44,878 nt of DNA from a candidate division WOR-3 bacterium (lineage in GTDB: Bacteria > Hydrothermota > Hydrothermia > LBFQ01): contig JBDRWW010000011.1 of assembly GCA_039802605.1 (NCBI GenBank), positions 1-44,878 of the forward strand. Reading direction: 5' to 3'. How positions within the stretch are numbered: the stretch's first letter is position 1; every line of letters starts with the position of its first letter. Below, in pieces: positions 1,783-44,422 of this stretch. The position numbers were made by a program, and so were the translations under genes. The notes below the pieces were generated by a model. It was given only the letters and a program-made list of their open reading frames with translations, was not told where the DNA came from and searched no databases.

Positions 1783-1794
1783 ATTTTACCCCCG
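1783..1794 (-). promoter_or_regulatory. C-N5-TAnnAT promoter motif of proline dehydrogenase
   Basis: CGGGGG-TAAAAT, 9 nt before the ATG at 1773. Confidence 0.7.
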
Positions 1795-1806
1795 TTAAAA
1801 CTTAAA

Positions 1807-1974
1807 CTATTCAAAATCTTTGAGAGTGAAGGATGAAATAACCGTCGCAAAAAGCACATAAAGTATAAGTATGGAAATTGCTTTCCAAACATTTAAGATA
1901 TTAACATATCCCTTTATGAGTTCTAACAATGCATCAACCACATAATGGAAAGGTAAAAGGTATCCTATTTCATC
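1807..1974 (-). pseudogene. C-terminal remnant of an ABC-2 type permease
   Basis: Manual translation DEIGYLLPFHYVVDALLELIKG...WKAISILILYVLFATVISSFTLKDFE*; no N-terminal part. Confidence 0.7.
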
Positions 1975-2440
1975 CCTTCAAAAGTTCCAAAAGAATACTA
2001 TCAAGGTTATCGTAATCAAAATCCACATATTGCGCGTTTTTGAAGTTAAGATTTTTAAGCATTTCCGCAATTTTGTCCGGACTGTTTGTTGTCTCAAAGG
2101 TTTTCTCTCCTTCCGAAGTTTTAATCTTAATCCTGAATTTACCAAAAGTTAATATATTTCTCGGAGTATCGTATGCCAAAAGTTTCCCACGGTATAGTAT
2201 GGCCAAACGATCACACATTTGGGCCTCTTCCATTAAATGCGAACTCACAAATATGGTCTTTCCCTCGGATTTCAGACGAGCAAGGAAACCTTCCTTTTCA
2301 TTCCCCCAGAGAAAGACCATACGGGGTAATCCGCCTGTTTTCCAACTCTACAAACCTTAAAAAATTCCGTATATTCACGCAAAAAACTCCAAATTTTCCC
2401 TTGCCGTTAAATCTTCGTATAAGGCAAAATCTTGGGGCAA
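1970..2440 (-). pseudogene. Degraded ABC transporter ATP-binding subunit
   Basis: Q-loop LPQDFALYEDLTARENLEFFA* (TGA at 2375-2377), signature FSGGMKRKVSL and H-loop TIFVSSHLMEEA are separated by stops and frameshifts; Walker A and B are absent. Confidence 0.85.
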
Positions 2441-2574
2441 ACTTCATTAGGTGTGATAACCCATTCCTGTAAAGCAACCGCATAAACGCTGTTCCCATAA
2501 GCCTGCCCTTCTAAAACTTCACTCCCAACCAAATTTACCCTCCAAGTGGCAATATACGATATTACCAATACCAT
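2407..2574 (-). pseudogene. 55-aa chimeric ORF: probable N-terminus of an exported protein fused out of frame to the ABC remnant
   Basis: Strong SD AAGGAGGTGA just before ATG 2574; MVLVISYIATWRV...; its last codons overlap the ABC Q-loop in another frame. Confidence 0.5.
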
Positions 2575-2591
2575 ACCTCACCTCCTTTTTA

Positions 2592-2781
2592 TTATCCATC
2601 CTTAAACACGGTAAAATATACCCCCTTGCCTTTTATCCCTTTTACCTCCCTGCCACTTATATCGTATAACTTATACTCCCCACATATGCTTACAACATTC
2701 TCACCTTGAACCCCAGAACGACCCATGCCAACGGGATTACTATACCTTAAACTGTCGGAACTTAGTATTAATAACAAACAT
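2592..2781 (-). pseudogene. Remnant of a secreted protein with a T9SS-like C-terminal tag
   Basis: YKLYDISGREVKGIKGKGVYF; ATG 2781 is one base out of frame with TTG 2777; passenger domain missing. Confidence 0.6.
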
Positions 2782-2792
2782 TTGATTATGCT

Positions 2793-2870
2793 ATTTTAAG
2801 GCTGAACCCTTTTCCCTGTCAAGGAAGTTTTTTACCCATCCAACCGCCGATAAACCAACAACCTTAAAAT
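2793..2870. promoter_or_regulatory. Divergent C-N5-TAnnAT promoter pair
   Basis: Minus: CAGCCT-TAAAAT (2804-2793). Plus: CAACCT-TAAAAT (2859-2870), 8 nt before the gcvPB ATG. Confidence 0.7.
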
Positions 2871-2878
2871 TCCCGGAA

Positions 2879-4312
2879 ATGAAAACAATTTTTGAAAAAC
2901 ACAAGGAGGGATCGTCAAACTACACATTCCCGGAGTTTGAATACGAAGTTGAGATACCCGAAGAATACAAAAGGAAAATCCCTCTTAACCTCGTTGAAGT
3001 TCCGGAAAACGAAGTTGTTAGGCACTATATTAAACTTTCGCAAAAAAATTACGGGGTTGATATAGGCTTTTACCCATTGGGTTCCTGCACGATGAAATAC
3101 AATCCAAAAATAAACGAAGAACTTTCAAGACTTCCCGGCTTTACCCATCTACACCCCCATACACCCGAAAAACTCGCCCAAGGGGCCTTGGAGGTTATGT
3201 ACGAACTCCAAGAGATCTTAAAGGAACTTACGGGTATGGATGCGGCAACGCTTCAACCGAGTGCCGGGGCTCAGGGGGAATTGACGGGAATACTAATAAT
3301 AAAGGCGTATTTGAAGGATAAGGGACAGGGGCACAGGGATGAGGTTTTAATACCCGATTCTGCGCATGGAACAAATCCGGCAACCGCATCTATGGCCGGC
3401 TTTAAGGCAGTTGAAGTGAAATCCGATAAGGACGGTCTTTTATCCGTTGAAGATTTAAAGGGGAAACTTTCGGATAGGACGGTTGGCCTAATGATTACAA
3501 ACCCAAACACCTTGGGGCTTTATGAGAGGAGGATAAGGGAGATATGCGATTTGGTTCATAAGGCGGGGGGGCAGGTTTATATGGATGGTGCAAACTTTAA
3601 TGCCCTAATGGGTTGGATAAAACCGGGGGATACGGGTGTTGATGTCATACACCTAAACCTTCATAAAACTTTTTCCGTTCCCCACGGTGGAGGCGGTCCT
3701 GGGGCTGGTGCCCTTTTGGTTAAGGGGCATTTAAAGGATTACTTACCCGTTCCCGTTGTTGAAAAATCCGAAAACGGATATTATTTCAATTGGGATCTGC
3801 CAAAGAGCATAGGGAAGGTTCATACATTTTACGGGCATTTCTTGGCATTCATAAGGGCTTATGCTTATATACTCTCAATGGGTAGTGAGGGTTTGAGAAA
3901 GGCGGCGGGGGATGCGGTATTAAACGCAAACTATTTAAAACACCTTTTGGAAAAGGACTTTAAGGTTGCATACCCTTCCGTTTGCATGCACGAATTCGTA
4001 ATAACCGCCAAACCAATAAAGGACGAAACGGGCGTTAGGGCTTTGGATATAGCAAAGAGGATTTTGGATTATGGAATGCACGCACCAACGGTATATTTCC
4101 CCTTAATAGTTCCGGAGGCCTTAATGATTGAACCAACGGAAACGGAAACAAAGGAGACCCTTGAAGATTTCGCCAAAATTATGAAAAAAATAAAGGAAGA
4201 GGCGTACAACGATCCCGAAAAGGTTAAAAACGCACCATACAATACACCGGTTAGGAGACTTGACGAGGCTAAGGCCGCAAAAGAATTAAAGGTTTCGTTT
4301 TTTGAAGGATGA
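2879..4312 (+). CDS. gcvPB: Glycine dehydrogenase (decarboxylating) subunit 2
   Basis: YPLGSCTMKYNP, SAHGTNPAT, HLNLHKTF (PLP lysine), PHGGGGPG, IEPTETE. Confidence 0.97.
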   Translation: MKTIFEKHKEGSSNYTFPEFEYEVEIPEEYKRKIPLNLVEVPENEVVRHYIKLSQKNYGVDIGFYPLGSCTMKYNPKINEELSRLPGFTHLHPHTPEKLAQGALEVMYELQEILKELTGMDAATLQPSAGAQGELTGILIIKAYLKDKGQGHRDEVLIPDSAHGTNPATASMAGFKAVEVKSDKDGLLSVEDLKGKLSDRTVGLMITNPNTLGLYERRIREICDLVHKAGGQVYMDGANFNALMGWIKPGDTGVDVIHLNLHKTFSVPHGGGGPGAGALLVKGHLKDYLPVPVVEKSENGYYFNWDLPKSIGKVHTFYGHFLAFIRAYAYILSMGSEGLRKAAGDAVLNANYLKHLLEKDFKVAYPSVCMHEFVITAKPIKDETGVRALDIAKRILDYGMHAPTVYFPLIVPEALMIEPTETETKETLEDFAKIMKKIKEEAYNDPEKVKNAPYNTPVRRLDEAKAAKELKVSFFEG

Positions 4313-4743
4313 AGATAGCCATAGGCTGCGACCATAGGGGTTTTAGGTTAAAGGAGTTTTTAAAGGAAAAGTTATCAAAGGATTACGAGGTTTTGGATTT
4401 TGGAACATTTTCCGAGGAAAGTACCCACTACCCAATATACGCGCATAAGGTTGCGTCGGCGGTTTCGAAAGGTGAGGCGGATTACGGTGTTTTGATATGC
4501 GCAACCGGTATAGGTATGAGCATAGCGGCGAATAAGGTTAAAGGTGTTAGGGCCGCGCATGTTTGTAGCGACGAACTCGTTGAACTTTCAAGGAAACACA
4601 ACGACGCAAATGTTATATGCTTTGGTAGTTTATATACGGATGGAGAAACGGCATTAAGGTGGGTTAAAATCTTTATATCAACCGAATTTGAAGGTGGAAG
4701 GCATTTAGAAAGGGTAAGGATGCTGGAAAATGTTCCCCATTAG
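4309..4743 (+). CDS. rpiB: Ribose-5-phosphate isomerase B
   Basis: GCDHRG, ICATGIG, AANKVKGVRAA, HNDANV, FEGGRH. Confidence 0.95.
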   Translation: MKIAIGCDHRGFRLKEFLKEKLSKDYEVLDFGTFSEESTHYPIYAHKVASAVSKGEADYGVLICATGIGMSIAANKVKGVRAAHVCSDELVELSRKHNDANVICFGSLYTDGETALRWVKIFISTEFEGGRHLERVRMLENVPH

Positions 4744-5371
4744 CGACGACATACCTTCAAAGAGAAAACCCTTTGTAATGTGGATTTTTATAATAATTTG
4801 CGTTATGGTTTTCCTCATACAAACCGAAGGGATAACACAAATGTTTGGGTTTATACCCGTTAAATTTTGGTTTAGGGGTGAATGGATACAAACAATAACA
4901 TACATATTTCTACACGGAAACCTGTTCCACCTTTTGGGTAATATGTACTACCTATACATCTTTGGGGATAACGTTGAGGATAAACTTGGAAGGTTTGGTT
5001 TTGCCCTATTGTTCATACTATCCGGTATAGGAGGGGCTTTATTGCACGGGATATTCTACCCATACTCCCACATACCCCTTGTTGGGGCCTCGGGGGCGAT
5101 TTCCGGAGTCCTTTCGGCCTATATGATAATGTTTCCGACGGCGGGGATATACACATATGTTTTTTGGTATCTCGTTAAAGTACCGGCGATAATCTTCATA
5201 GGGTTTTGGGTGGTTATGAATTACATTTATGCCTTATCCGGCGTAGAGGTTGGGGTTGCGTGGTGGGCCCATATAGGGGGATTTTTAGTGGGGATTCCGT
5301 TTGGGGTCATAGGAAGGTTAAAGATGTTTTTACAGGGGGAAGGAGATGAGGATATACAACTCTTTACTTGA
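4730..5371 (+). CDS. Rhomboid intramembrane serine protease
   Basis: FLHG-FHLLGNM, GASGAISG, AHIGG. Confidence 0.93.
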   Translation: MFPISDDIPSKRKPFVMWIFIIICVMVFLIQTEGITQMFGFIPVKFWFRGEWIQTITYIFLHGNLFHLLGNMYYLYIFGDNVEDKLGRFGFALLFILSGIGGALLHGIFYPYSHIPLVGASGAISGVLSAYMIMFPTAGIYTYVFWYLVKVPAIIFIGFWVVMNYIYALSGVEVGVAWWAHIGGFLVGIPFGVIGRLKMFLQGEGDEDIQLFT

Positions 5372-6311
5372 TTTGATAGGTAAAACCCCTCTTGTTAAAA
5401 CGAGACTTTTTAAGGGTTTCAAAGCGGAGGTGGTGCTAAAATTGGAATCCTTTAACCCCATGGGTAGTGTAAAGGATAGGATAGCAATTCAAATGGTTGA
5501 GGATGCGGAGAGGGAGGGGAAGTTAAAACCCGGAATGTTGGTAGTTGAATCCACATCGGGGAATACCGGGGCGGGTTTGGCCCTCGTTTGCCTATTAAAG
5601 GGTTATAAGTGCGTTTTAACCGTTCCGGACAAGGTTTCCAAAGAAAAGATTGACCTCTTGAAGGCCTTGGGTGCGGAGGTTGTAATATGCCCGACAAATG
5701 TACCGCCTGAATCCCCCGAAAGTTATTACTCCGTTGCCAAAAGGATAGCGGAGGAAAGGGGAGGTTTGTACATAAACCAATACGAAAACCCTTCAAACCC
5801 AAAGGCCCACTATTTAACAACCGGTCCTGAAATATGGGAAGATACCGATGGTAAAGTTGATGTAGTAGTTGCGGGAATAGGAACGGGCGGGACTTTAACG
5901 GGTGTGGCAAAGTTTTTAAAGGAGAAGAAACCTTCCGTTGAATCCATTGCGGCCGACCCCGAAGGTTCCGTTTATTACGATTACTTCTATAAGGGTCATT
6001 GGGAGGAGGCCCATCAGTATTTGATTGAAGGTATTGGGGAGGATTTTATACCCTCAACCATAGACTTTAAATACATTGACAGGATTTACAGGATTACGGA
6101 TGAGGAGGCTTACGATTGGGCGAGAAAGTTGGCCAAGGTTGATGGTATATTATCGGGAAGCTCTGCGGGTGCGGCCCTTTGTGCCACATACAAATACCTT
6201 TTGGAAAACGATGGAAATAAACTCATAGTCGTAATTATACCCGACAGCGGTTTTAGATACCTATCAAAGGTTTTCAACGAGGATTGGTTAAGGCAAAAGG
6301 GTCTTTTGTGA
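5346..6311 (+). CDS. PLP-dependent cysteine synthase / cystathionine beta-synthase family protein
   Basis: GSVKDR, STSGNTG, GTGGT, IEGIGEDF (CBS-like); no C-terminal CBS domains. Confidence 0.9.
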   Translation: MRIYNSLLDLIGKTPLVKTRLFKGFKAEVVLKLESFNPMGSVKDRIAIQMVEDAEREGKLKPGMLVVESTSGNTGAGLALVCLLKGYKCVLTVPDKVSKEKIDLLKALGAEVVICPTNVPPESPESYYSVAKRIAEERGGLYINQYENPSNPKAHYLTTGPEIWEDTDGKVDVVVAGIGTGGTLTGVAKFLKEKKPSVESIAADPEGSVYYDYFYKGHWEEAHQYLIEGIGEDFIPSTIDFKYIDRIYRITDEEAYDWARKLAKVDGILSGSSAGAALCATYKYLLENDGNKLIVVIIPDSGFRYLSKVFNEDWLRQKGLL

Positions 6312-7040
6312 TCACCTGATAAAGTGTTCCAACCCTTTGGACTTTAAAAGGGATATAAGGTTTTGTGTGTTTTTATCCGATGGATAACCGCTAAACTTGG
6401 GTATTTTATCCCCAAAACCCAAAAAACGGTTTAAAGAAAGCATTTCCAACTCCCTGAAATACTTGGCAAACAGGGAAGCGAGTGCCACCTCTTTATACCT
6501 TTTATCCGCCCCCCTTTCAAATCTTAAAATTTTTGCACCCTTTTTATAAATACCCTTTTCCAAAACCTCCCAACCCTTCAAAAACCTCCCGTAATCCCTA
6601 AAACCCCCCGCCAACCCCGCTATAACGGTATTCCCCTTTAACCCATCCGCTATTTTGCAAATTGCCTTTGCATCCTCTACAAACCTGTTCTTCCTCAATT
6701 TAAAGGCCTCCAACCTCATCGGAACCAGGTTTATAACCTCAAATGGGAGTTGTAATATTTTTCCACCGAAAGCCGGAATCTCAACATTTTTAAAAATTTC
6801 ATCGGCTTTTCCGAAAACTTTTAAGAACAGATCGTATGAGTTGTCAAATCTATACCCCATGCGTGCAAAGGAGGATAAAACCAAACTCTCCGCATAAGAA
6901 TAACCCTTTATGTCCCTCCTGAAAACCTCCTTACTCTCCTTTAAACCGCTTAAATCCCCGATCACATCAACCCCGACTACGAACAGGGAACCAATTTTTG
7001 GGCCGAGGCCGGCCTCATCTATTCCCGAAAAAATCATCAT
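6312..7040 (-). CDS. rnhB: Divergent ribonuclease HII family protein
   Basis: GIDEAG-GP--G, ESK, AD--Y-EVALASLFAK--R, SGYPSD; start placed at MMIFSG (7040). Confidence 0.7.
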   Translation of the reverse strand: MMIFSGIDEAGLGPKIGSLFVVGVDVIGDLSGLKESKEVFRRDIKGYSYAESLVLSSFARMGYRFDNSYDLFLKVFGKADEIFKNVEIPAFGGKILQLPFEVINLVPMRLEAFKLRKNRFVEDAKAICKIADGLKGNTVIAGLAGGFRDYGRFLKGWEVLEKGIYKKGAKILRFERGADKRYKEVALASLFAKYFRELEMLSLNRFLGFGDKIPKFSGYPSDKNTQNLISLLKSKGLEHFIR

Positions 7041-7800
7041 ATTTTGGGTCCATATACTTTTCAACCGCTCTGGAATAGTTTTCCAAAAGTTCCCTCCACC
7101 TTTCCCTATTTATAACCTTTGCAAAGGCATAAGAGCCGTAAATCTGGCCGGCATGAAAGGCCACCCCAACGCCAAACGAGGCATAAGCGGGAATATCCCT
7201 CTTCTCCCTAAACTTATAATAAAAACCCAAAACATAAAATGTTCCAACCATAAAGGCACCCATAAGGGCGGTTCCCCTATCCCCAAGCCAGTACCTACCA
7301 AAACCGGGAATTATTGATAAAAAGGCCGCTTTTTTGGGAGATTTTAAGTCGGGGTCGTAAATGTATCTTTCCAAAACCGTCCCCGCAACCACCCTTTTCG
7401 CCTCCTTCCAATCCCCTTCCTGCAACCTCATCCAAGCGACTAAGGATTTCTTTTGAACGGAATTATCCGGCATTTTTGAAAGTTCCTCATAAAATTTAAA
7501 GGTATCCCCCTTATAAAGGTATATCTTCGCCAATTCGTAATGAGCCCAAACCTTTCCCCTTTTGTTTTCCACAATGTGCCTTTTAAAAATCTCCTCCGCA
7601 AAGTCCAATAGATTTGCTAGTTTATAAGAATATCCGGCCATAAAGTGCGCGTAATCAACGGAATCGCTGTTTGGGAAAAGCGTAATAAACCTCAAAAATT
7701 CAAGGGCGGCTTCCCTATATTTCCCTTCCGAATACAATTCCTCCGCAAAGGAAAAAACCTGCTGGGGATATATTTCAACCTGAAATACAAGCCAAATCAT
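7015..7800 (-). CDS. TPR (BamD/YfiO-like) protein with C-terminal membrane segment
   Basis: FAEELYSEGKYREAALEFLRFITLFPNS; KSPKKAAFLSIIPGFG. Start moved to ATG 7800 because the longer ORF overlaps rnpB and a promoter motif lies 8 nt upstream. Confidence 0.8.
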   Translation of the reverse strand: MIWLVFQVEIYPQQVFSFAEELYSEGKYREAALEFLRFITLFPNSDSVDYAHFMAGYSYKLANLLDFAEEIFKRHIVENKRGKVWAHYELAKIYLYKGDTFKFYEELSKMPDNSVQKKSLVAWMRLQEGDWKEAKRVVAGTVLERYIYDPDLKSPKKAAFLSIIPGFGRYWLGDRGTALMGAFMVGTFYVLGFYYKFREKRDIPAYASFGVGVAFHAGQIYGSYAFAKVINRERWRELLENYSRAVEKYMDPKYDDFFGNR

Positions 7801-7808
7801 TGGCGGAA

Positions 7809-7856
7809 ATTCTAATCCCGATTGATGTTCATTATCGGATTTTTCAACTTTATAAT
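7809..7856. promoter_or_regulatory. Divergent promoter pair for the TPR gene and rnpB
   Basis: Minus: CGGGAT-TAGAAT (7820-7809). Plus: CAACTT-TATAAT (7845-7856). Confidence 0.75.
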
Positions 7857-7862
7857 ATAAAC

Positions 7863-8268
7863 TCGGGTGTGTGCCGGCGGTCGCCCCTAATAGGGGAGGA
7901 AAGTCCGGGCTCCAAAGGGCAGGGCGCCGGGTAATACCCGGGGTGGGGCAAAACCCCACACGGTAAGGGCCTCAGAAACAAGACCGCCGAAGGCCCTTTA
8001 AGGGCCAGGCAAGGGTGAAAGGGTGGGGTAAGGGCCCACCGGCTCCGCAGTAATGCGGGGTGAGGGGGTGAAATGCCCCCGGCCGGGTGAGTCCCGGCTC
8101 AGGTAACCGCCCGCCCGGAGCAAGGCCAAGCAGCGCCGCTCCCCGTAATGGGATAAGGTGGCCCGCCGAAATGCGGCGCGGGTAGGCCGCTAAGGAGTCC
8201 GTGGGGTAACCCACGGGCCAAGATAGATGACCGCCGCATACAGAACCCGGCTTATGGCACACACCCGA
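7863..8268 (+). ncRNA. rnpB: RNase P RNA, bacterial type A
   Basis: GAGGAAAGTCCGGGCTC, GGGTGAAAGGGTG-GGTAAG, GGAGCAAGGCCAA, AGATAGATGACC, ACAGAACCCGGCTTA; P1 pairs TCGGGTGTGTGCC with GGCACACACCCGA. Confidence 0.98.
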
Positions 8269-8295
8269 TTTATTTGAAAGCATCGGAAATTTTAT

Positions 8296-8307
8296 CTAAG
8301 TTATAAT
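8296..8307 (+). promoter_or_regulatory. Promoter motif of the yjbQ-like gene
   Basis: CTAAGT-TATAAT, 8 nt before GTG 8316. Confidence 0.7.
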
Positions 8308-8315
8308 ATTCTCTT

Positions 8316-8729
8316 GTGAAGGCATATACGAAATATTTATGGTTTAACACTCCGGAGAAGAGGGCGATAATAAGGATTACGGATGAGGTTGAAAAAGCCG
8401 TTGAGGAATCCGGTATAAAGGAGGGTTTGTGCTTGGTTTCGTCAATGCACTTAACGGCGAGCGTGATAGTTCAGGATAACGAACCCGGATTACATAAGGA
8501 TATATGGGAGTGGCTTGAAAAATTGGCACCTTTCAGGTATGACTATCACCACCACCATACAGGTGAAACAAATGGGGATGCACATTTAAAAAACCTACTG
8601 GTACATTTACAGGTTATATTACCCATAACCAACGGAAAGTTAGACCTCGGGCCCTGGCAGGAAATATTCTATGTGGAGTTTGATGGGCAAAGGAGAAAAA
8701 GGGCAATAATTAAAATCATAGGGGAATGA
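8316..8729 (+). CDS. yjbQ: YjbQ/UPF0047 family protein
   Basis: [26 protein letters not shown]. Confidence 0.93.
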
Positions 8730-9823
8730 AACGGACGGGGGATATAAGGAACTTTCTTGAAGCCGTTGAAGCCAGTGCGAGGATGGGTAGTCAGTATATT
8801 TGGAAGGTTAGTATCGAACTTCCAGATAGGGAAGGGGAGGGATATGTTATGGGTGGAAAACTCATATATTTGAAAATTGGGGATTTAAAGGGAAACGAGG
8901 CCTTAAAGGCTTTAAGGAAATACGACAGATTTGCGTATTCAATTGAGATTTTTAACGGTTATGTTCCGGAAATCCACGACATAGACATTTTGGAATTGTA
9001 CCATGAGGAACTTTCCCCGATGTTTTCTAGATTACCCATTACAACGGTTAAGGGAAATTTTGTTGATATACTTATGGAATTAGAGGAAAGAGGCTTTAAC
9101 GGTATTATATCTTTTTCGGATAGGGAAGGTAGGGGATATATAGGAACCGTATGCGGAGGGAGGTTATGCGGAATAAGGTACTTGGGTGTTTTGGGTTCAA
9201 CATCAACAATCCTTCAAAATATACGGGAACTTTCCACGGATTTTTACCTACTGGAATTCAAATACCTTGATAAGATTTCGGGTTTTATATACGGTTTAAA
9301 GGATATAGTTGATTCTCCGGCGGGTCAATGGAATGCCCAAAAGTTAAAAAGGATAAACGGCACGGTTGAAGTCACTAGGGGCACAAATAGGATTCTCGTT
9401 ATATCCGATGGAAGCAATGTAATTACCATTTTCGGTTTAAGCATTCCCCCTTCTTTCGGGGAGGATATTATTCCCCTTATATTTCAAAGGGGGAACCTTA
9501 TAAACACATATCCCGCTACGGAGCCAAAACCTATATTTGAATATACCTTCAAGGAAGCCCGGACAATTACAAATATATTCTCATCCTTGGTATCGGAATC
9601 CAGAAAAATCGTCGGCGAAATCGTTTTTAAGCGTGCAGCCGATAAGGTTTTAAATTATTACCTACCCCCCAAGCCCTACCCCGATGATATCGTTAATACA
9701 TTAAAGTCCATTTTCTCCATTTACGAAAAGGAGATTTCGGCGTTTACCGGGAAAAAATGGAAGGAGAAAAAGGCCAGTATCCTATCGGAGTATCCGGAGC
9801 GCTTGGTTAAACTTTTTGGATAA
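8726..9823 (+). CDS. Hypothetical protein with DUF4388/PATAN-like repeats
   Basis: [19 protein letters not shown], then [14 protein letters not shown]; helical C-terminus. Confidence 0.55.
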
Positions 9824-11536
9824 TCAACGCCTTATAACCTTTTTGACCTTACCATCTTTTACGATAAAATAAACACCTTTGTTCTCAATTCCCTTTACAA
9901 TTTTACCATCAACCCTATAAACCTTTCCCCCATTTTTCGTTAATTTTGATATTTCCTCATCAACGGATGTTAAGCAAACATTTATCAAAGAGGGTTGCGA
10001 AACCATATACATCATGAAATCACCCGAGTTTATAGCGTTATTTTCATCAACATCAAACCACAAAGCGACCAAAAGGTCATATGTTCCCGCCGGAGTCCCC
10101 GATGGTACAACAAATATTCTACTCCCCGTAGAAGAACCAGAAGGTACGGTTATTTTTCTATCGTTGGGTGGGTCACTGTAATAACTACCGTTATAAAGGG
10201 ATGCCCCTATCATTATCTGGTTATGCGTATCTTCTGCGTAATTCCGAATATTCACATATATGGTGAATGTATCCCCTATGCAAACATTTGTGGGACTCGC
10301 GCTTATGGAGGTTATATACATAGGCGTGGATAACCTATATCCTCCGGGCGAATAGTAATGCTCGTTTATCCACTTCCAAGTATAACCGTTATTCGCCCAC
10401 CTCGATGAACCCCATTGGCACATACCCCTCCCGTGTCCATAACAGGAATGACCCGTGCAAACCGGATCGGATATACAAGGCCAATAAACCCCATCCCCAC
10501 ACCCGCAATCATTGTTTTCGGCCGAATATTCGGATCTCGCTATAGTTCCGGAGTTTTCAAGCATTATGCCCGATGTATATATCGCCGCGTTTACGGTTGA
10601 TGAATAACTATCACTCGGATCCCAAACCTGGCAACAAGCGCTATTGCAAATATCGTAGGAGGAGTTTATGGGGTTTAAAACATGCCAGGCACCATAAGAC
10701 CTATAAGGGATAGCCCCAGCCCTCAGGGAATGAGCATTCCAACTGGCTATCCATTCATCGTCAAGACCGTATTGTACATATGTTTCAAGGGATACTATAC
10801 TTACGGATGAGCAACTCCTGCAACTGCAATTTGTTCCAACCTTTATGGTTGAAGGGGGGATAAGTAGGGGAGCATGCAATTCGTAATCTTCATCGGAAGG
10901 GGTAAAGGATTTTTTTTTAAAATCTTCCGATTGCTTTTCAATATTTATGCCGTGTTCCTTTTTCTTTATTACCCTACCGTTCCCGGGGGACAGTTGGGCG
11001 TTCAATCTTTGAACACCTTCCAATATGAATATACCGGTTTTTTCAAAGGTTGTGTATCCGTTTTTACTGAATATAACCTTGCCTTCTAAGGGTTTTTCAC
11101 CGTTGGAGCCCTTTACCGGAAATTCAACATAGTAATAACCTTTGTTATCGGTTTTCGCGTTATAGGATCCATAAGGGGTATTCACTTGCACGTTTACACC
11201 TTCCAGCGGGGTGCGCGTCTTTTCATCAACAACCCAACCGTACCATATGGCATACCCGTTTTTCGGTTTTGGGGGTTGGGGTATTTCCAAGGGCATAAGC
11301 ATAAAGTTTATATCTTTGGGTGTGGTTTTATCCACATTTAGCGTGGTTTTTAGTTCCCTGTATCCCTTTGCCTCAACGCTTATGCTGTATTTACCCTCTT
11401 TGAGGTCCAAGGTCAAAAACCCGTTTTCCGTGGTTTTATGGACTGTATCGTTTATCTTTACGGTTGCCCTTATCCCATACCCCGTTATAGCATCCGTTAT
11501 GCTGAAATTTATCGTATAAGAAAACAAAACCAACAT
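9824..11536 (-). CDS. Secreted SpoIID/LytB-domain protein with carboxypeptidase-regulatory-like domains and short T9SS-like tag
   Basis: LETYV---L--EW--SW---SL-AGA---RSY; YDIC---CCQV; GHGRGMCQWG; tail VYRVDGKIV...KGVYFIV. Start placed at MLVLFSY (11536). Confidence 0.85.
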   Translation of the reverse strand: MLVLFSYTINFSITDAITGYGIRATVKINDTVHKTTENGFLTLDLKEGKYSISVEAKGYRELKTTLNVDKTTPKDINFMLMPLEIPQPPKPKNGYAIWYGWVVDEKTRTPLEGVNVQVNTPYGSYNAKTDNKGYYYVEFPVKGSNGEKPLEGKVIFSKNGYTTFEKTGIFILEGVQRLNAQLSPGNGRVIKKKEHGINIEKQSEDFKKKSFTPSDEDYELHAPLLIPPSTIKVGTNCSCRSCSSVSIVSLETYVQYGLDDEWIASWNAHSLRAGAIPYRSYGAWHVLNPINSSYDICNSACCQVWDPSDSYSSTVNAAIYTSGIMLENSGTIARSEYSAENNDCGCGDGVYWPCISDPVCTGHSCYGHGRGMCQWGSSRWANNGYTWKWINEHYYSPGGYRLSTPMYITSISASPTNVCIGDTFTIYVNIRNYAEDTHNQIMIGASLYNGSYYSDPPNDRKITVPSGSSTGSRIFVVPSGTPAGTYDLLVALWFDVDENNAINSGDFMMYMVSQPSLINVCLTSVDEEISKLTKNGGKVYRVDGKIVKGIENKGVYFIVKDGKVKKVIRR

Positions 11537-11544
11537 AATCGTAT

Positions 11545-11572
11545 ATTTTAAAGGTGATTTCAACCTTATCAT
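11545..11572. promoter_or_regulatory. Back-to-back promoter pair within 28 bp
   Basis: Minus: CACCTT-TAAAAT (11556-11545). Plus: CAACCT-TATCAT (11561-11572). Confidence 0.7.
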
Positions 11573-11579
11573 ACCCAAA

Positions 11580-12032
11580 ATGATTGAGGGGGTTAAAGTA
11601 AAGGCGTTAAGGGTGATCCCCGACGATAGGGGAAGGCTTGCGGAGATTTTGAGGGTTGATGATGATATATTTGAGGGTTTCGGGCAGGTTTATTATACCA
11701 CCGCCTATCCGGGTGTTGTAAAGGCTTGGCATGCGCACAGATTTCAAACGGATTTCATAACCTGTATTCATGGAATGATAAAACTCGTTTTATACGATGA
11801 TAGGGAAAACAGCCCCACAAAAGGGGAAATAAACGAGTTTTACATAGGAATACATAACCCCATACTCGTAAAAATTCCCCCCCTCGTTTGGCATGGGTTT
11901 AAAAACATCGGCCTTGAAGAGGCAATAGTTATAAACATCATCACAAAACCTTACAACCAAAAAAATCCGGATGAACTTAGAAAACCTGCACATGGAGTTA
12001 TCCCTTACGATTGGAGTAGAAAGGATAGATAG
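11580..12032 (+). CDS. rfbC: dTDP-4-dehydrorhamnose 3,5-epimerase family (cupin)
   Basis: DDRG, PGVVKAWHAH, DDRENSPT, IPPLVWHGF. Confidence 0.88.
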   Translation: MIEGVKVKALRVIPDDRGRLAEILRVDDDIFEGFGQVYYTTAYPGVVKAWHAHRFQTDFITCIHGMIKLVLYDDRENSPTKGEINEFYIGIHNPILVKIPPLVWHGFKNIGLEEAIVINIITKPYNQKNPDELRKPAHGVIPYDWSRKDR

Positions 12033-14045
12033 TTAAACCAACTCCCCCATTTCCCTTAATTTATCCCTAATAACCATAGCCTTTTCAAATTCCAAATTTT
12101 CCGCGTAAAATGTCATCATTTTCTTCAATTCCTTCAAAGCCTTATGTCTTGGGTATTCCCTTAGAATTTCGTTTATTTTCTCCTCAAAATCCTCTTCCCC
12201 TTTTGTCAATACCCTTTCATCCGCAACTTCCGTGGCTTTTAATATCTCTTCCCTACTCTTCTTTATGGTTCTTGGAATAATACCATATTTCCTATTGTAT
12301 TCCAACTGGATTTTCCTCCTCCTTTCCGTTTCCTCAATTGCCTTTTTCATCGCTTCGGTGATCTCGTCGGCGTATAGTATTACTTTACCCGCCGCATTCC
12401 TTGCGGCTCTACCAATGGTCTGTATTAAGGCGGTGTATGACCTTAAGAATCCGGCCTTGTCGGCATCCGTTATCGCAACCAAAGAAACTTCTGGAAGATC
12501 CAAACCCTCCCTCAAAAGATTAACGCCCACCAAAACATCTATATTTCCAAGCCTCAAATCCCTTAAAATTTTAACCCTCTCTATCGCGTCCAATTCGGAA
12601 TGCAGATAACCCGCCCTTATGCCAACCTCTCTAAGGTAATCGGAAACTTCTTCCGCAGACCTCTTTGTTAAGGTGGTTATAAGTACCCTCTCACCCCTAT
12701 CAATGGTTTTCCTTATCTCTTCCAAAAGGTTGTCCATCATGTTTTCCAATGGCCTAACCTCAACAATGGGGTCGGGTATTCCCGTAGGTCTAACTATCTG
12801 TTCAACCACCTCTCCACCCGTTAGTTCAAGTTCAAAGGGTCCGGGTGTTGCGGACATGAATATAACTTGCTTTAATAAAGACATAAGTTCTTCAAACTTT
12901 AAAGGTCTGTTATCCAAAGCCGATGGGAGTCTAAAACCGTATTCTATTAAATTTAACTTCCTCGTTTTATCCGCCTCGTACATAGCCCTTAATTGTGGGA
13001 TGGTTACATGGGATTCGTCAATAACGGTTAGGAAATCATCGGGGAAATAATCTATTAGCGTCCAAGGTCTTTCTCCGGGTTTCCTACCGGTTATATGCCT
13101 TGAATAGTTTTCTATTCCCGGGCAAGTTCCGGTTGTCCGCAAAAGTTCAATATCGTATTTCGTTCTCTGTTCAAGTCTCTGAGCCTCAAGGAATTTACCC
13201 TGTTCCCTCAATTCCCTTAACCTCTTCTGCAATTCCATTTCTATGCTTTTTATGGCCCTCTCCAACCTATCCTCACCTCCTAAGAAGTGCGCGGCTGGGT
13301 ACAATAGGTACTCTTTTAATTCCCTTATAACCTTTAAGGTTGTAGGTTCCAACATCCTAATCCTGTCTATCTCATCACCCCAAAACTCAACCCTTAAAAT
13401 AAACTCCTCGTAGGCCGGGATTATATCAACCACATCACCCTTTATCCTAAACCTTCCCCTTTGTAAGTCTATATCGTTCCTCTCATACCTCAAATTTACG
13501 AGTTTCAATGCGAAATCCTTTAAATTCCACCTATCCCCAACCCTTATATGTAGGAAACTCTCCCTTATTACATTTGGGTCATCCAAGGAATATATCGCCG
13601 AAACCGAAGCCACGACTATAACATCCTCACGGGTCATAAGTGAAGAAACGGTTCTAAGCCTTAGCCTTTCAATGTCGTCGTTTATAGTCGCCTCCTTTGG
13701 TATGTATGTATCCGTTTGGGGGATATACGCCTCCGGTTGATAGTAGTCGTAATAAGAAATGAAGTATTCAACGGCGTTTTCTGGGAAAAGGGCTTTTAAC
13801 TCCCCATAAAGTTGAGCCGCCAATGTTTTGTTATGAGAAAGTATTAGGGTTGGTTTTCCGGTTCTCGCTATAACATGGGCTATCGTGTAAGTTTTTCCGG
13901 TTCCCGTTGCACCTAAGAGAACGGAAAACCTTTCGCCGCTTTTAATCCTCTCAACCAGTTGTTCAATGGCCTTTGGTTGATCCCCAGCGGGTTCAAAAGG
14001 TGCGTGTAATACAAAGGGGGAACCCTCAAACCTATATACGGGCAT
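12033..14045 (-). CDS. uvrB: Excinuclease ABC subunit B
   Basis: GDQP, GATGTGKT, YYDYYQPEAY, DESH, LREGLDLPEV, QTIGRAARN, C-terminal UVR domain. Confidence 0.98.
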   Translation of the reverse strand: MPVYRFEGSPFVLHAPFEPAGDQPKAIEQLVERIKSGERFSVLLGATGTGKTYTIAHVIARTGKPTLILSHNKTLAAQLYGELKALFPENAVEYFISYYDYYQPEAYIPQTDTYIPKEATINDDIERLRLRTVSSLMTREDVIVVASVSAIYSLDDPNVIRESFLHIRVGDRWNLKDFALKLVNLRYERNDIDLQRGRFRIKGDVVDIIPAYEEFILRVEFWGDEIDRIRMLEPTTLKVIRELKEYLLYPAAHFLGGEDRLERAIKSIEMELQKRLRELREQGKFLEAQRLEQRTKYDIELLRTTGTCPGIENYSRHITGRKPGERPWTLIDYFPDDFLTVIDESHVTIPQLRAMYEADKTRKLNLIEYGFRLPSALDNRPLKFEELMSLLKQVIFMSATPGPFELELTGGEVVEQIVRPTGIPDPIVEVRPLENMMDNLLEEIRKTIDRGERVLITTLTKRSAEEVSDYLREVGIRAGYLHSELDAIERVKILRDLRLGNIDVLVGVNLLREGLDLPEVSLVAITDADKAGFLRSYTALIQTIGRAARNAAGKVILYADEITEAMKKAIEETERRRKIQLEYNRKYGIIPRTIKKSREEILKATEVADERVLTKGEEDFEEKINEILREYPRHKALKELKKMMTFYAENLEFEKAMVIRDKLREMGELV

Positions 14046-32429: not shown

Positions 32430-32432
32430 AAT
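32421..32432 (+). promoter_or_regulatory. Internal promoter of korA overlapping the phoU stop codon
   Basis: CAACCT-TAGAAT, 8 nt before ATG 32441. Confidence 0.7.
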
Positions 32433-39102: not shown

Positions 39103-39136
39103 ATTTTAAGGTTGAAAAATTAAACGGTTATAAAAT
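39103..39136. promoter_or_regulatory. Back-to-back promoter pair within 34 bp
   Basis: Minus: CAACCT-TAAAAT (39114-39103). Plus: CGGTTA-TAAAAT (39125-39136). Confidence 0.7.
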
Positions 39137-40876: not shown

Positions 40877-40880
40877 GGGT

Positions 40881-42260
40881 TTGAATAGTGCCCTCTTTTG
40901 GACTTTAGCTTCAAGGGTTTCAATACAGGCTTTCTCCTTTTTAAGGGTTGTTATACTCGCGAGAATACTAACCCCCTACGATTTCGGTATTTCCGCCAGC
41001 ACATTTATAGCATATCAACTATTGGATATGCTAACATTTACAGGTTTTACAACGGCTTTAACCGCCCATAAGGGCAATTTTAAAGAGGGTTATCCAACCC
41101 TTTGGTGGTCAACATTTATAAGGGGGCTAATTCTTGCCACCATATTGTTTTTGTTTTCCGATAGTATAGGGGATTTTTTTCACGATAAAAATGTTTCCTT
41201 TGCCGCAAAAGTTATAGCGCTATCCTTTATACCAAACTCGTTAACAAACCCCGTTTTCATAGTTGAGGCCAATAGGTTTTTTGATTTTAAGAAGATCTTT
41301 ATTTTGGAGTTTTCGGAAGCCTTTATAAACACGATTTCGGCCGTAATCCTTGCATTTTACTTTAAGGATTTCAGGGCTATGATATACGCTTTCTTAATCG
41401 GGGTATTTTCAAAGTTTATAATTTCTTATGTTTTAAGGCCGTATATTCCCAAACTTTCTTTTAGCCTTCGGTGGTTTAAAGAGATGCTATCCTTTGGGAT
41501 TTGGGTGAATTTAACCTTCGTATTGAATTTCCTTTTGAGGTATGCGGATAGGACATTGGTGGGTAAGTTTGCGGGGCAATCCCAATTGGGTTATTACTCA
41601 AACGCCCAAAACTTGGCTTTCTTGGTCGCACCGCAGTTGAGCTCAATGATTTCAAGGGTTCTTTTTCCGTTTTTTGTGGTTTCGAGCGGGGAAGATAGCG
41701 AAAGGGCCTTCTCTTATTATCTAAGGGCTGGGATATTAATAGGGGGGTTATTTTTTGCCCCTATGTTCTATTGGAGCGAAGGAGTTATAAAAATCCTTTT
41801 GGGAGATAAGTGGCTTGAAGCCGCGGATTTATTAAAACCACTTTCCTTGGCCTCCATAATGTCCATAATATCCAATACCATAAGCCCGCTATCTCAGGGA
41901 AAAGGTAAGCCAAATCTTGATGTTTTCCGATTGGCAATAATACCTCTGGTATTTTTACCCCTTTCCCTTTTAAACCCAGGTAATTCCGTATGGATAGCGT
42001 GGTCGCTTTTCTTCGGATACTTATCTTCCTTAGCCCTTTGGTATGTGGGGGTTGTTTTAAGCGGGGTAAGGGGATATTACGCCTTAAAACCCCTTTTACC
42101 TTTGGCCATTTCTTTGATATCGCCTATACCCTTTCAAAACGGAATTGTAAAAACCCTTGTGTTTTTATTAACCCTAATAATTTCCGAGCTTATCCTGTTT
42201 AAGGGATTGGGGATTTTTAAGATTTTGAAGTTAAGGATTCCAGAGGTTCAAAAGCCTTAG
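40881..42260 (+). CDS. Wzx-type oligosaccharide flippase
   Basis: ILARILTP-DFG, about 12 hydrophobic segments, D---VGK-------GYY, LLG-KW. Confidence 0.88.
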   Translation: MNSALFWTLASRVSIQAFSFLRVVILARILTPYDFGISASTFIAYQLLDMLTFTGFTTALTAHKGNFKEGYPTLWWSTFIRGLILATILFLFSDSIGDFFHDKNVSFAAKVIALSFIPNSLTNPVFIVEANRFFDFKKIFILEFSEAFINTISAVILAFYFKDFRAMIYAFLIGVFSKFIISYVLRPYIPKLSFSLRWFKEMLSFGIWVNLTFVLNFLLRYADRTLVGKFAGQSQLGYYSNAQNLAFLVAPQLSSMISRVLFPFFVVSSGEDSERAFSYYLRAGILIGGLFFAPMFYWSEGVIKILLGDKWLEAADLLKPLSLASIMSIISNTISPLSQGKGKPNLDVFRLAIIPLVFLPLSLLNPGNSVWIAWSLFFGYLSSLALWYVGVVLSGVRGYYALKPLLPLAISLISPIPFQNGIVKTLVFLLTLIISELILFKGLGIFKILKLRIPEVQKP

Positions 42261-44396
42261 GATTTCGGATTTTTCATTCTTCAAATACTTTAACCCCTTA
42301 TCACCCAACTTTAAAAGCACAAAGGCCTTTAAAATCCTCTCATCCCCCAAAACCCCATCTTCCTTTAAAAGTTTCCTTACGATTTCCGTTTCCCTATTTG
42401 CCCTCTCACCATTTCCATACCTTTCAAAGAAGACATCTTTGAGGTAAATATATAAATCCTCTGAGATTTGAAATTCGCCAAATTCAACCCTTTTTATACC
42501 CATAAGGTATAGGGCCTTTTGTAATGCGTTTGCCCTTATAAAACCTACTCCCTTTATACCGCCCAAAGGGGCATATTCCATAGGCAAGCCGTACCTATAA
42601 GAGTGCATAACCCTTAAAATATCCTTGTCGGTGATAAAAATGTAGCCTTCTTCTCTAAGGGTAATTACCGCCCTTGCCAAATGGTATATATCAACCAAAG
42701 AAAAACCCAATTCCCCCGGTGGGTTTGATATATTGGGATAGTGGAAAAGTCTTCCGTTTAGGTATGCCCACAATTCATCCGTCCCGTCTTCGGGGAAATC
42801 GTAAAAGGGATATTTTGTTTTAAACGCCATCCTCTCCTCAAAAAACTTATCTTTCAAAAAACTTCGTAGGGAGCCCTTGATTTTTTTCATATAGATTAAA
42901 GGCCTAATGGTTAATAGCGTGTCTATACCGCTTTCCCACCTCCTCTTCATCTCTATATATCCGAGGGGTGAAATTGAATGCCTCAATAATATTTCCCCTA
43001 TACCCGTTAATTTTCCGTTTCTTATAAACCCGTAATGTTCAAGGTATGCATATACATCTTCAAGGAATTCACCCTCAACATTTTTAAGGGATGGGACGAG
43101 GGATACAAATTTTTTCCAATTGTTTCCGGCGACCTCCACAGCCCCAAGAACCATTAATGCCACAAAGGATGATATTCCCCAATATTCCTTCAAGTTTAAA
43201 CTCCCATTCATTGAAGAGACATAGGGCTTGATACCCTCAAATATATCTTCCAATTCCTCCCGTATATCCCTATTTGATTTGCTCCAAACATACAATTCCA
43301 CATATCCTTTTTCTTTTATACCGTACCTTCCGGCTCTGCCCTCCATCTGCAATATATCCAAAACATCGGGGATATACTTATCCCGTTTAATCCTTCGGGC
43401 GAAAATTATAACCCTATCCGCTGGGAGATTTACCCCATAGGCCAATGTTTGCGTGGCTATTATGGTTTTCAAATTCCCATTTCTAAAAGAGTTTTCTATT
43501 CTTTCCCTTTCCTCGCTCGGTATATCCGCGTTATGAAAGGCCACATCTTCCCCATCCCTTTGGGGTACAAATGGCAATGTTTCATTTAGAATCCCAAGAT
43601 CCTTAAAGGATAATTCCTCCAAAACCCTATACCCTATATCCTTTTTATGCACAAAAACCAAAGTTTTCTCATTACCGGATAACTTTAAAACCCTTTCAAC
43701 TATAAACCCCACCAGTTCATCCTCATCGCCTACATCCAAACGCTTGTAGGTTCTTTCAACGGGTACGGGTCTGTAATTTGAAATTAAAACATAATTTGCA
43801 CCTATGAGATCTGCGAGTTCCTGGGGTTTGGGTACGGTTGCGGATAGGGACATGAAGGGAAACATACTTTTGTAATTTATATACGCCAAAATCTCCTCAA
43901 TCACAATACCCCTGTCTTTATATATGTGGTGGATTTCATCCAAGACAATGGGCAAAGTTATCCAATGCCTGTTTGTTCTCAAAGAGTTTGCAAGGCTCTC
44001 ATAAGTACAAATGTAAATATCCCTATCCGTTATAAACTCCTCAAATACATCTCCCGTTCTCAAACCAACTTTATCCTCACCGAAAAACTTTACAAATTTC
44101 TCATATAATTCGTTCGCCAATGCCTTCGTTGGAACCGCGTATGTACCCTTTCCATTCATAAATAGGATTGCAACGCCGGTTTTACCGGAGGATGTGGGCG
44201 CCACGATTAAGGCGTTTTCCTTCAAACCCTTTGCAATATATGTTTCATAAAAAACGCTTTGCAAGTGGTTTAGGCTTTTAAAGGGAAAATTGGGCAGGTT
44301 TATGTTTTCCTTTAATTCGTATGAAAGGGTTTCGTTATCCGCAATAACCTTTATACTTTTCCCCTTTACATCGTTTATAACCAAACGCCTTAACAT
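42231..44396 (-). CDS. Ski2/Hel308-like superfamily 2 helicase
   Basis: APTSSGKT, DEIH, LSAT, RPVP, FHNAD, TLAYGVNLPA, QMEGRAGR, HhH-like IKGVGF-RA. Confidence 0.88.
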   Translation of the reverse strand: MLRRLVINDVKGKSIKVIADNETLSYELKENINLPNFPFKSLNHLQSVFYETYIAKGLKENALIVAPTSSGKTGVAILFMNGKGTYAVPTKALANELYEKFVKFFGEDKVGLRTGDVFEEFITDRDIYICTYESLANSLRTNRHWITLPIVLDEIHHIYKDRGIVIEEILAYINYKSMFPFMSLSATVPKPQELADLIGANYVLISNYRPVPVERTYKRLDVGDEDELVGFIVERVLKLSGNEKTLVFVHKKDIGYRVLEELSFKDLGILNETLPFVPQRDGEDVAFHNADIPSEERERIENSFRNGNLKTIIATQTLAYGVNLPADRVIIFARRIKRDKYIPDVLDILQMEGRAGRYGIKEKGYVELYVWSKSNRDIREELEDIFEGIKPYVSSMNGSLNLKEYWGISSFVALMVLGAVEVAGNNWKKFVSLVPSLKNVEGEFLEDVYAYLEHYGFIRNGKLTGIGEILLRHSISPLGYIEMKRRWESGIDTLLTIRPLIYMKKIKGSLRSFLKDKFFEERMAFKTKYPFYDFPEDGTDELWAYLNGRLFHYPNISNPPGELGFSLVDIYHLARAVITLREEGYIFITDKDILRVMHSYRYGLPMEYAPLGGIKGVGFIRANALQKALYLMGIKRVEFGEFQISEDLYIYLKDVFFERYGNGERANRETEIVRKLLKEDGVLGDERILKAFVLLKLGDKGLKYLKNEKSEILRLLNLWNP

Positions 44397-44410
44397 TAAA
44401 GGCGTCGTAT

Positions 44411-44422
44411 ATTATAACACCG
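44411..44422 (-). promoter_or_regulatory. Promoter motif of the helicase
   Basis: CGGTGT-TATAAT, 14 nt before ATG 44396. Confidence 0.6.

Follow-up and report, generated by a model that had tools for sequence, protein, structure and literature searches.

A C-N5-TAnAAT promoter motif with a near-invariant upstream cytosine in a family of candidate division WOR-3 bacteria

The element considered here, a C followed after five nucleotides (nt) by the hexamer TAnnAT (C-N5-TAnnAT), recurs upstream of genes in contig JBDRWW010000011.1 of a candidate division WOR-3 bacterium (GenBank assembly GCA_039802605.1), and its closest described counterparts are bacterial promoters in which a -10 box acts with little or no contribution from a -35 box. 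Leaderless promoters, with the -10 box adjacent to the open reading frame (ORF), have been described in Deinococcus-Thermus and Actinobacteria, and correspond to group C of GeneMarkS-2 (PMC6028130, PMC12340547). Other such promoters depend on elements in the spacer. The Z-element, which acts via the zipper of the β' subunit, can replace the -35 box on promoters with a strong -10 box; this is best shown with the polymerase of a thermophile, and the same study predicts a '-10/Z' class of promoters (Yuzenkova et al. 2011, PMC3173786). Its effect is mediated by a Tyr-Arg pair of the zipper, and in the T7A1 promoter the element is AACCT at -22 to -18 (PMC3173786). Likewise, an AT-tract in the spacer, at -17 to -23, activates -10-only promoters via R451 of σ70 (PMC7229825; see also PMC3130263).

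The window, i.e. the whole stretch of DNA analysed (44,878 nt), is a complete 44.9-kb contig of a 1.65-Mb metagenome-assembled genome, which has 41% GC, is 90% complete and comprises 23 contigs. Relatives of its UvrB and RpoD indicate no more than a deep-branching bacterium, the best UvrB matches being 50-59% identical and scattered among many phyla and the closest RpoD coming from an uncultured bacterium. A sequence-only reading of it had listed 24 C positions (11 on the plus strand and 13 on the minus strand), and had remarked on the purine that usually follows the C. Each of the 24 is a C followed by 5 nt and then TAnnAT, and the purine is present at 23 of them, the site at 8296 having T instead. 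The single exception that it had singled out, upstream of a presumed uvrB gene, was also verified: TAAGAT at 14059-14054 has G instead of C six nt upstream. With 24 of the 25 hexamers bearing the C, against a C frequency of 0.206, the probability of such an excess by chance is ~7e-16. A feature that had been left out is the presence of an ATG, GTG or TTG 6-10 nt beyond the hexamer almost everywhere in the window. By our crude gene table this is true of 21 of the 24 C sites, the other three being rnpB (7845), 2804 (ATG at 11 nt) and 44422 (ATG at 14 nt). The sites are given below as the C, the five spacer bases and the hexamer, with the codon or RNA that follows.

2859-2870, plus strand: promoter motif C AACCT TAAAAT; ATG at 2879, 8 nt past the hexamer
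7845-7856, plus strand: rnpB promoter motif C AACTT TATAAT; RNase P RNA (7865-8270) begins 8 nt past the hexamer; C present in 4 of 4 orthologues, spacer altered
8296-8307, plus strand: promoter motif C TAAGT TATAAT; GTG at 8316
11561-11572, plus strand: promoter motif C AACCT TATCAT; ATG at 11580; back to back with 11545-11556
16266-16277, plus strand: promoter motif C AGCCT TAGAAT; ATG at 16287; rhodanese-domain gene
20755-20766, plus strand: promoter motif C AGCCT TAAAAT; ATG at 20775
25007-25018, plus strand: promoter motif C AACCT TATAAT; GTG at 25027
28545-28556, plus strand: promoter motif C AACCT TATAAT; TTG at 28563 or ATG at 28566
31127-31138, plus strand: promoter motif C GGGGG TAAAAT; ATG at 31147
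32421-32432, plus strand: promoter motif C AACCT TAGAAT; ATG at 32441; inside the end of the preceding co-directional ORF
39125-39136, plus strand: promoter motif C GGTTA TAAAAT; ATG at 39146
1783-1794, minus strand: promoter motif C GGGGG TAAAAT; ATG at 1773
2793-2804, minus strand: promoter motif C AGCCT TAAAAT; ATG 11 nt past the hexamer; downstream sequence resembles a fragmented ABC-ATPase gene
7809-7820, minus strand: promoter motif C GGGAT TAGAAT; ATG at 7800
11545-11556, minus strand: promoter motif C ACCTT TAAAAT; ATG at 11536
15433-15444, minus strand: promoter motif C AAAAG TATAAT; ATG at 15424
16223-16234, minus strand: promoter motif C GGGTT TATAAT; ATG at 16213
20471-20482, minus strand: promoter motif C GGGAG TATTAT; ATG at 20462
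23398-23409, minus strand: promoter motif C AGCCC TATAAT; GTG at 23388
24979-24990, minus strand: promoter motif C GGAAT TATAAT; ATG at 24968
28505-28516, minus strand: promoter motif C ATCCT TAAAAT; TTG at 28497
31091-31102, minus strand: promoter motif C GAAGT TATAAT; ATG at 31082
39103-39114, minus strand: promoter motif C AACCT TAAAAT; ATG at 39095
44411-44422, minus strand: promoter motif C GGTGT TATAAT; ATG at 44396, 14 nt past the hexamer, hence a short leader
14054-14065, minus strand: exception G TCTTG TAAGAT, no C at -6; ATG 8 nt past the hexamer; ORF of 670 amino acids (aa), 12033-14045, the uvrB of the sequence-only reading

Within 1783-44422 we found no clear transcription-unit start that had been overlooked, the possible extras being a 72-nt gap before 34286 and an in-ORF match at 41002. 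Several of the motifs stand back to back within 20-55 bp, e.g. 11545-11556 and 11561-11572, so that the place of a -35 box is taken up by the opposite promoter or the opposite gene.

Genome-wide enrichment of the C had been named as a check of the window pattern, and such an enrichment was found. Genes were represented by 1628 crude ORF calls (longest ORFs, taken greedily), with candidate starts in the first 60 codons. TAnnAT hexamers at 6, 7, 8, 9 and 10 nt before candidate starts number 106, 165, 262, 198 and 119, against 43-78 at distances of 11-39 nt, i.e. the hexamer-to-start distance peaks at 6-10 nt with a mode of 8 nt. Positions are numbered here from the hexamer, with -1 being the base just before TAnnAT, so that the C stands at -6, the equivalent of -18. 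Hexamers with C at -6 account for 65, 105, 207, 165 and 54 of the sites at these five spacings; those without it amount to 41, 60, 55, 33 and 65, which is the background level. In total, the C is present at 534 of 707 start-proximal hexamers, a set selected by TAnnAT near the start codon of a longest ORF and hence including chance matches, as against 20.6% of a control set of the 20,130 other TAnnAT sites of the genome, a value equal to the genomic C content. The remaining start-proximal sites have G (44), A (76) or T (53) at -6, and about nine tenths of the excess start-proximal hexamers bear the C.

The consensus was derived from 499 sites of the C class with a hexamer-to-start spacing of 6-9 nt. 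The box is TAnAAT, with A at its fourth position in 472 sites. Upstream of the box C predominates at -3 (316 sites), C and T at -2 (239 and 134) and T at -1 (309); downstream of it a/t is followed by C at +7/+8/+9 (265/303/301). The C at -6 is itself preceded by a T-rich segment at -11 to -7 and an A-rich one at -16 to -12, which gives the fuller consensus A-rich, T-rich, C-(A/G)(A/G)-C-C-T-TAtAAT-a-C-C-C. The two flavours of the motif recognised earlier in the window, CA(A/G)CCT and CGGnnn, are real: A follows the C in 232 sites, mostly continuing as (A/G)CCT (CCT in 119), and G follows it in 129, with G again as the next base in 104. The idea that the CGG flavour is a divergent, overlapping promoter read backwards was dropped, the register being one base off when reasoned from the site sequences. 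The reported absence of a -35 box was likewise upheld, the information content being at most 0.05 bit at each position from -40 to -17 from the hexamer. TTGACA, matched at five or more of six positions at a spacing of 16-18 nt, is found at 29 of the 499 sites and at 8 of 499 in a shifted control, and a few percent of the promoters may retain a -35 box. The TG of the extended -10 element is also lacking: T occurs at -3 in only 50 sites and G at -2 in 77, positions at which C dominates. Promoters of the Bacteroidota type have TAnnTTTG, with TTTG near -33. Neither feature is seen in the 499 sites, where the hexamer ends in AAT followed by a-C-C-C, and where no information is present around -33.

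That the motif is a signal for transcription had been argued from its presence before rnpB, and the argument extends to the tRNA genes: the motif precedes rnpB and 42 of the 47 tRNA/tmRNA genes (46 tRNA genes and one transfer-messenger RNA gene, called with Aragorn). The RNase P RNA gene, at 7865-8270 (Rfam, 211.6 bits), begins 8 nt past its hexamer, and at the tRNA/tmRNA genes the hexamer ends 7-21 nt, in most cases 8-13 nt, upstream of the mature 5' end, with a chance expectation of ~4% per gene. Four of the five tRNA genes without the motif are downstream members of one five-tRNA cluster, and the fifth is tRNA-Gln on contig C19. In 13 of the tRNA/tmRNA cases the hexamer nearest to the gene lacks the C. 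In 11 of these it is the overlapping register TAATAT within TATAATAT, and at two tRNA-Met genes it is a TATCAT or TATTAT starting 5 nt after TATAAT; in all 13 the TATAAT register does bear the C. The tRNA promoters have the purest consensus, ttt-C-A-A-C-C-T-TATAAT-A-t-C-C, again with no -35 box. Genome-wide, almost all tRNA genes (on contigs C1-C19, none of them in the window) are solitary with a promoter of their own. In 39 of the 42 the -10 box ends 7-13 nt before the mature 5' end, a distance implying precursor tRNA 5' leaders of ~0-5 nt, which would be unusually short for RNase P substrates.

Conservation was assessed by following the 13 promoters of the window interval 1700-21600 into five other genomes of the family, three from the genome's own genus and two from its sister genus. 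Orthologous promoter places numbered 23; 21 of them retain a hexamer, and each of these 21 has the C at -6. The five bases between C and hexamer differ from those of the window in 15 of the 21, and the two bases after the C vary freely, as illustrated by rnpB, in which CAACTT is replaced by CGGGTT, CCGCTT or CGGCCT. The hexamer is missing at two orthologous places (11561 in the sister genus). A sister-genus genome with 57.5% GC as against 41% (G008; 76 kb) has the C in 24 of 27 sites.

The limits of the motif were traced in 151 sampled genomes of the phylum, of which seven, in two genera, make up the genome's own family. The pattern CNNCCTTATAAT exceeds its reversed control in each of the seven (115/17, 111/16, 158/20, 32/4, 51/5, 27/1 and 62/0), and outside the family an excess was seen in one genome only (G100, 26/2). 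The C had been thought lineage-specific, and this was confirmed: it is present in both genera of the family, and was detected neither in the sister family nor in four further families of the class. The sister family, which belongs to the same order, has a -10-adjacent, -35-less layout with C-T-T-TAAAAT-T(T) and no C at -6; the C at -3 is present in 40 of 60 sites of G017 (27% GC) and 21 of 33 sites of G012 (51% GC). Of the other families of the class, those of G019, G020, G086 and G100 show little or no start-proximal peak and have tRNA promoters with a TTGA-type -35 box. In a further family (f5), represented by G071 (contig C1, 1-160000), hexamers peak near start codons and are clearly preceded, at 18 nt, by a TTG box (T, T and G in 22, 26 and 29 of 44 sites at -24 to -22). 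Its promoters near start codons, TTG-N3-N18-T-TATAAT-TT, are thus of a leaderless type that has a -35 box. We read the fixed C as something that this family has added to a C(-15)-T-T element found throughout the order.

Before the 534 promoter-class start codons only a single match to Shine-Dalgarno (SD)-like 4-mers occurs from 17 to 9 nt upstream, and other genes have an SD-like bump 13-11 nt before the start (293, 321 and 276, against ~160-190 at the flanks). By this layout and the missing SD, the predicted promoters belong to the known leaderless, -10-adjacent type. The position of -18 that had been given to the C stands as far as it is counted from the hexamer, but would become ~-20 if transcription starts at the start codon. 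To locate 5' ends we mapped four public RNA runs (three hot-spring metatranscriptomes, ~3-5% of each run, and one from sediment) on 1750-21700; depth was obtained over rnpB only, and no mRNA 5' ends. Most of the rnpB reads are 90-95% alike and run into unlike sequence, which indicates that they derive from other organisms. In runs X4-X6 most reads at 7895-8135 swap whole helices, e.g. in 873 reads of X6 a segment of 30 nt stands in place of 8043-8110, and such divergence points to RNase P RNAs of several related organisms being abundant in those hot-spring samples.

Set against the described systems, the promoters resemble group C in that a -10-like box precedes the start codon of a first gene by a few bases, with no SD and mostly no -35 box. 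The share of genes is likewise comparable, amounting to 534 of 1628 crude ORFs in this genome and to about a third of the genes of D. radiodurans (PMC12340547), and the modal box-to-start spacing is 8 nt as against 6-8 nt in M. tuberculosis (PMC6028130). The group C motif is TANNNT, with nothing conserved upstream in the pertinent passages of PMC6028130 and PMC12340547, whereas this genome has TAnAAT, the fourth base being A in 95%, accompanied by the fixed C, the C at -3 and a C-rich discriminator. In common with the extended -10 element (TGn), the motif has a short duplex element just upstream of the -10 box; such an element can replace the -35 box in extended -10 promoters (PMC4593229) and may do so here. 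The sigma of this genome has the residues by which TG is read (equivalents of H455, E458 and R441). It differs in that TG is replaced by C and then C/T at -15/-14, and that the strongest base is at -18, beyond the -17 to -13 contact zone of the solved complex (PMC4593229).

The motif may be compared with the Z-element: its C lies in the spacer, a few bp above the -10 box and after a T/A-rich tract, and the commonest five bases after the C are AACCT, as in the T7A1 element (PMC3173786). In T7A1 this AACCT is 4 bp off the -10 box, whereas here it abuts the box (-17 to -13), 5 bp closer, and the C alone coincides with the downstream end of the T7A1 element (PMC3173786). The Z consensus is loose, with effects of less than 2-fold (PMC3173786), whereas the C is nearly invariant. 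The zipper pair on which the Z-element depends is altered (Arg to Lys) in just the C-bearing family among the phylum genomes sampled. With the R451-dependent element the motif shares a T-tract at -19 to -23 and a conserved R451 equivalent; it is unlike it in having C at -18, where E. coli favours A/T and any AT-tract works (PMC7229825). We regard the -10-only leaderless promoter type as known, and the near-invariant C as its family-specific twist. The literature searched, leaving aside the supplementary files of the cited papers, describes no conserved C at this place, which agrees with the sequence-only reading. It also offers no description of promoters of this phylum, and the portions of the WOR-3 papers PMC12285271 and PMC12542636 that were available do not mention promoter, sigma or leaderless.

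Candidate readers of the C were sought in the RNA polymerase. The primary sigma factor (567 aa) has regions 1.1, 1.2, 2, 3 and 4; its residues were numbered by setting query 293-563 against 342-612 of the E. coli chain, and named as in PMC4593229. Counterparts of σ70 R451, H455 and E458 are all retained, and the region 3.0 stretch RTIRIPIHMIETI is conserved. Region 4.2 keeps the -35-reading helix TRERVRQLE, and its conservation suggests that -35 reading is disused rather than lost. The comparison of regions 3 and 4 that had been suggested earlier thus revealed neither a family-specific change in region 3.0 nor a loss of the region 4.2 helix, and yielded instead a His at the equivalent of residue 446, which is shared with the sister family. 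All 18 sigmas of the two -35-less families have His here, the 6 seen from five other families have Gln, Asn or Thr, and three proteobacterial chains have Gln; at the DNA level the pattern A-D-H-x-R-x-I-R-I-P occurs in 12 of the 151 phylum genomes, all within the two -35-less families. The equivalent of V454, a residue that is invariant in 1002 primary sigmas and lies near the -15 base (PMC4593229), is Ile in 22 of 24 sigmas of the class and is not specific to the -35-less families.

In the β' subunit, HMMER alignment to the Thermus chain revealed a 13-residue basic insertion, AERRGRERGEHGL, just before the zipper motif GEV..ETINY(R/K)T. It is found in 17 of 17 sequences shown from families f1, f2 and f5 and is absent from the 11 others shown. 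The insertion was considered as the cause of -35 loss and rejected, since it predicted f5 to be without a -35 box, but G071 has the clear TTG box. A structure prediction of the N-terminal 148 residues of β' (23-row alignment; mean predicted local distance difference test score 55, predicted template modelling score 0.40) was too poor to place the insertion. A cyanobacterial RNA polymerase γ subunit (8h3v_E) is likewise extended, by ~9 residues, at the corresponding position ahead of the zipper, and insertions at this site thus seem to be tolerated in more than one phylum. The zipper itself reads INYKT instead of INYRT in 7 of 7 genomes of the family, and the DNA pattern ETINYKT is present in 7 of the 151 genomes, exactly those of the C-bearing family. 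In the Thermus open promoter complex β' Y34/R35 and sigma H278/R274 contact the phosphates of -17/-16, and of 834 β' sequences 829 have R and 5 have K at the R35 position (PMC4593229). There is thus a suggestive stepwise match, in which the sigma His goes with the loss of the -35 box and the gain of the C at -15, and the zipper Lys goes with the gain of the C at -18.

We assign a probability of about 0.6 to the proposal, the best supported of those considered, that C-N5-TAnAAT is the family's standard core promoter for the housekeeping RNA polymerase, of an extended -10-like kind, without a -35 box and leaderless, in which the C is read by the holoenzyme itself. The TAnAAT box would be the -10 element. 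Judging from the spacing, transcription would most likely start ~8 nt past the box, on the start codon or no more than a few bases from it, and yield mRNAs that are leaderless; at the tRNA and RNase P RNA genes it would start at the 5' end of the RNA. The DNA elements of the spacer would be the fixed C at the -18 equivalent, the second C at -15, the T at -13 and the T-tract at -19 to -23, and the holoenzyme would read them by the surface that in solved open complexes touches -18 to -13, namely the junction of sigma regions 2.4 and 3.0 together with the β' zipper. We infer that the holoenzyme is the reader because rare substitutions of that surface occur in exactly the lineages with these promoters, and that contact with the C compensates for the missing -35 box. 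In a more specific form of the proposal, which we consider less likely than not, the promoters would be a natural '-10/Z' class: the zipper, through its insertion and the Arg-to-Lys change, may read the C:G pair at -18 and the sigma His the C at -15, which together may have replaced region 4 and the -35 box at nearly all promoters, in the order of insertion, sigma His with -35 loss, and zipper Lys with gain of the C. Several observations weigh against reading by the holoenzyme or the rest of the proposal. The sigma comparison detected no change specific to the C-bearing family in the region 3.0 helix; the β' insertion does not track -35 loss, family f5 having the insertion and its genome G071 the -35 box; and each of the polymerase-promoter links is a single evolutionary event (one clade for K, one for H), so that the correlations are unreplicated. 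The Thermus open complex has no protein-DNA contact from -29 to -18 (PMC4593229), and a base-specific contact at -18 would accordingly be new; E. coli, too, favours A or T, not C, at -18 (PMC7229825). In the start-proximal excess about one hexamer in ten is without the C, and so is the site before uvrB in the window. Lastly, the RNA runs, with mostly foreign reads, placed rnpB molecule ends at 7871 and 7875, 6-10 nt inside the predicted 5' end, which speaks neither for nor against a start near 7865.

The sites were picked by eye in the sequence-only reading, and by a hexamer near crude ORF starts in our survey, which might suggest that the C is a non-functional by-product of base composition, a dispersed repeat or site choice. 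The chance of this is negligible: control TAnnAT sites carry the C at the background level, the start-proximal peak exists in the C class only, the flanks vary from site to site as they would not in a repeat, and the C is kept in the 57% GC sister genus and in 21 of 21 orthologous promoters. It is very improbable, too, that the motif acts on RNA, as a signal for translation or processing, even though its fixed distance from start codons is what such a signal would show; the same distance is maintained before the untranslated rnpB and tRNA genes, the TAnAAT core is the bacterial -10 consensus, and in divergent pairs such as 11545-11556/11561-11572 each motif is upstream of its own gene only.

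Two further alternatives accept a promoter and differ in how the C exerts its effect. It could be a matter of indirect readout, the C, the T-tract and the flanking C-rich bases setting the shape or melting of the DNA, either as a bend or as G+C clamps confining the bubble at ~80 degrees C. The T-rich and A-rich segments directly before the C, the C-rich -3/-2 and +7 to +9 positions flanking an AT-only box, and the action of E. coli AT-tracts at the same place by bending and backbone contact (PMC7229825) all fit such a scheme. Yet shape and clamp effects seldom require a particular base at a given position, G is no commoner than A or T at -6 though G:C would clamp equally, the two bases after the C vary freely, and the sister family has the same layout without this C; we therefore consider indirect readout unlikely. 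The other alternative is a separate general DNA-binding factor, CarD/RbpA-like or some unknown protein, which would bind the C stretch and recruit or stabilise a polymerase itself blind to the C. A near-invariant base at a fixed distance is typical of protein contact, known polymerases make no base contact at -18 (PMC4593229), and the unchanged sigma 3.0 helix is also in line with an extraneous reader. On the other side, the accessory factor of this type that the sequence-only reading had envisaged did not appear: the genome has no stand-alone CarD and no RbpA match, an absence that its 90% completeness leaves unproven, and the sole CarD_TRCF_RID match is part of an Mfd-sized ORF with 836 aa or more. 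Such a protein would have to serve at least 500 promoters, including all tRNA promoters, as a general factor, and none is known for the phylum; moreover, it is the rare changes in the polymerase's own spacer-facing residues that follow the promoter types. A separate factor therefore appears to us distinctly improbable.

The promoter permits the start codons of this family, and probably also of the sister family, to be placed. Many first genes are likely to be leaderless, and gene callers of the standard, SD-based kind can be expected to misplace such starts often. A near-invariant base pair at -18 occurs in no described bacterial promoter element that we found. The change of the C between sister families, together with rare polymerase substitutions at spacer-contacting residues, amounts to a natural experiment on the co-evolution of promoters and RNA polymerase, and bears on the question of whether the core enzyme, through the β' zipper, supplies sequence specificity. 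Should the '-10/Z' reading be true, promoter specificity would have co-evolved stepwise with the polymerase. In practical terms, a 20-bp thermophile promoter with defined strong positions would be a useful expression part for related organisms.

The window also holds several features apart from the listed sites. An extra C-N5-TAAAAT at 8289-8300 on the minus strand is directed into the 3' end of rnpB (antisense), 5 nt before a probably spurious 103-aa ORF overlapping rnpB; this motif may be a chance match or an antisense promoter. Downstream of the 2793-2804 promoter there is no intact gene (1970-2781, minus strand). A 116-aa ORF at 1970-2320 and a 36-aa ORF at 2272-2382, which is in another frame and has an SGG-type motif, look like frameshifted pieces of an ABC-ATPase; the 116-aa ORF has no Pfam match, and 1780-2870 no Rfam match. 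The sediment metatranscriptome X1 yielded a 610-nt contig (depth 60, without a differing base) that matches 16436-17021 on the plus strand. The contig spans the end of the rhodanese gene and most of a 440-nt ORF-free stretch at 16650-17090, which has no Rfam match and whose transcript may be a long 3' untranslated region or an unknown RNA. Finally, the same-genus genomes G002 and G003 carry multiple copies of 15488-16242 and 20671-21214, seen as dozens of partial matches; these two stretches correspond to a coiled-coil ORF (15494-16213, minus strand), with no family above cut-off, and to a DUF5618/PaREP1-like ORF (20775-21224, plus strand).

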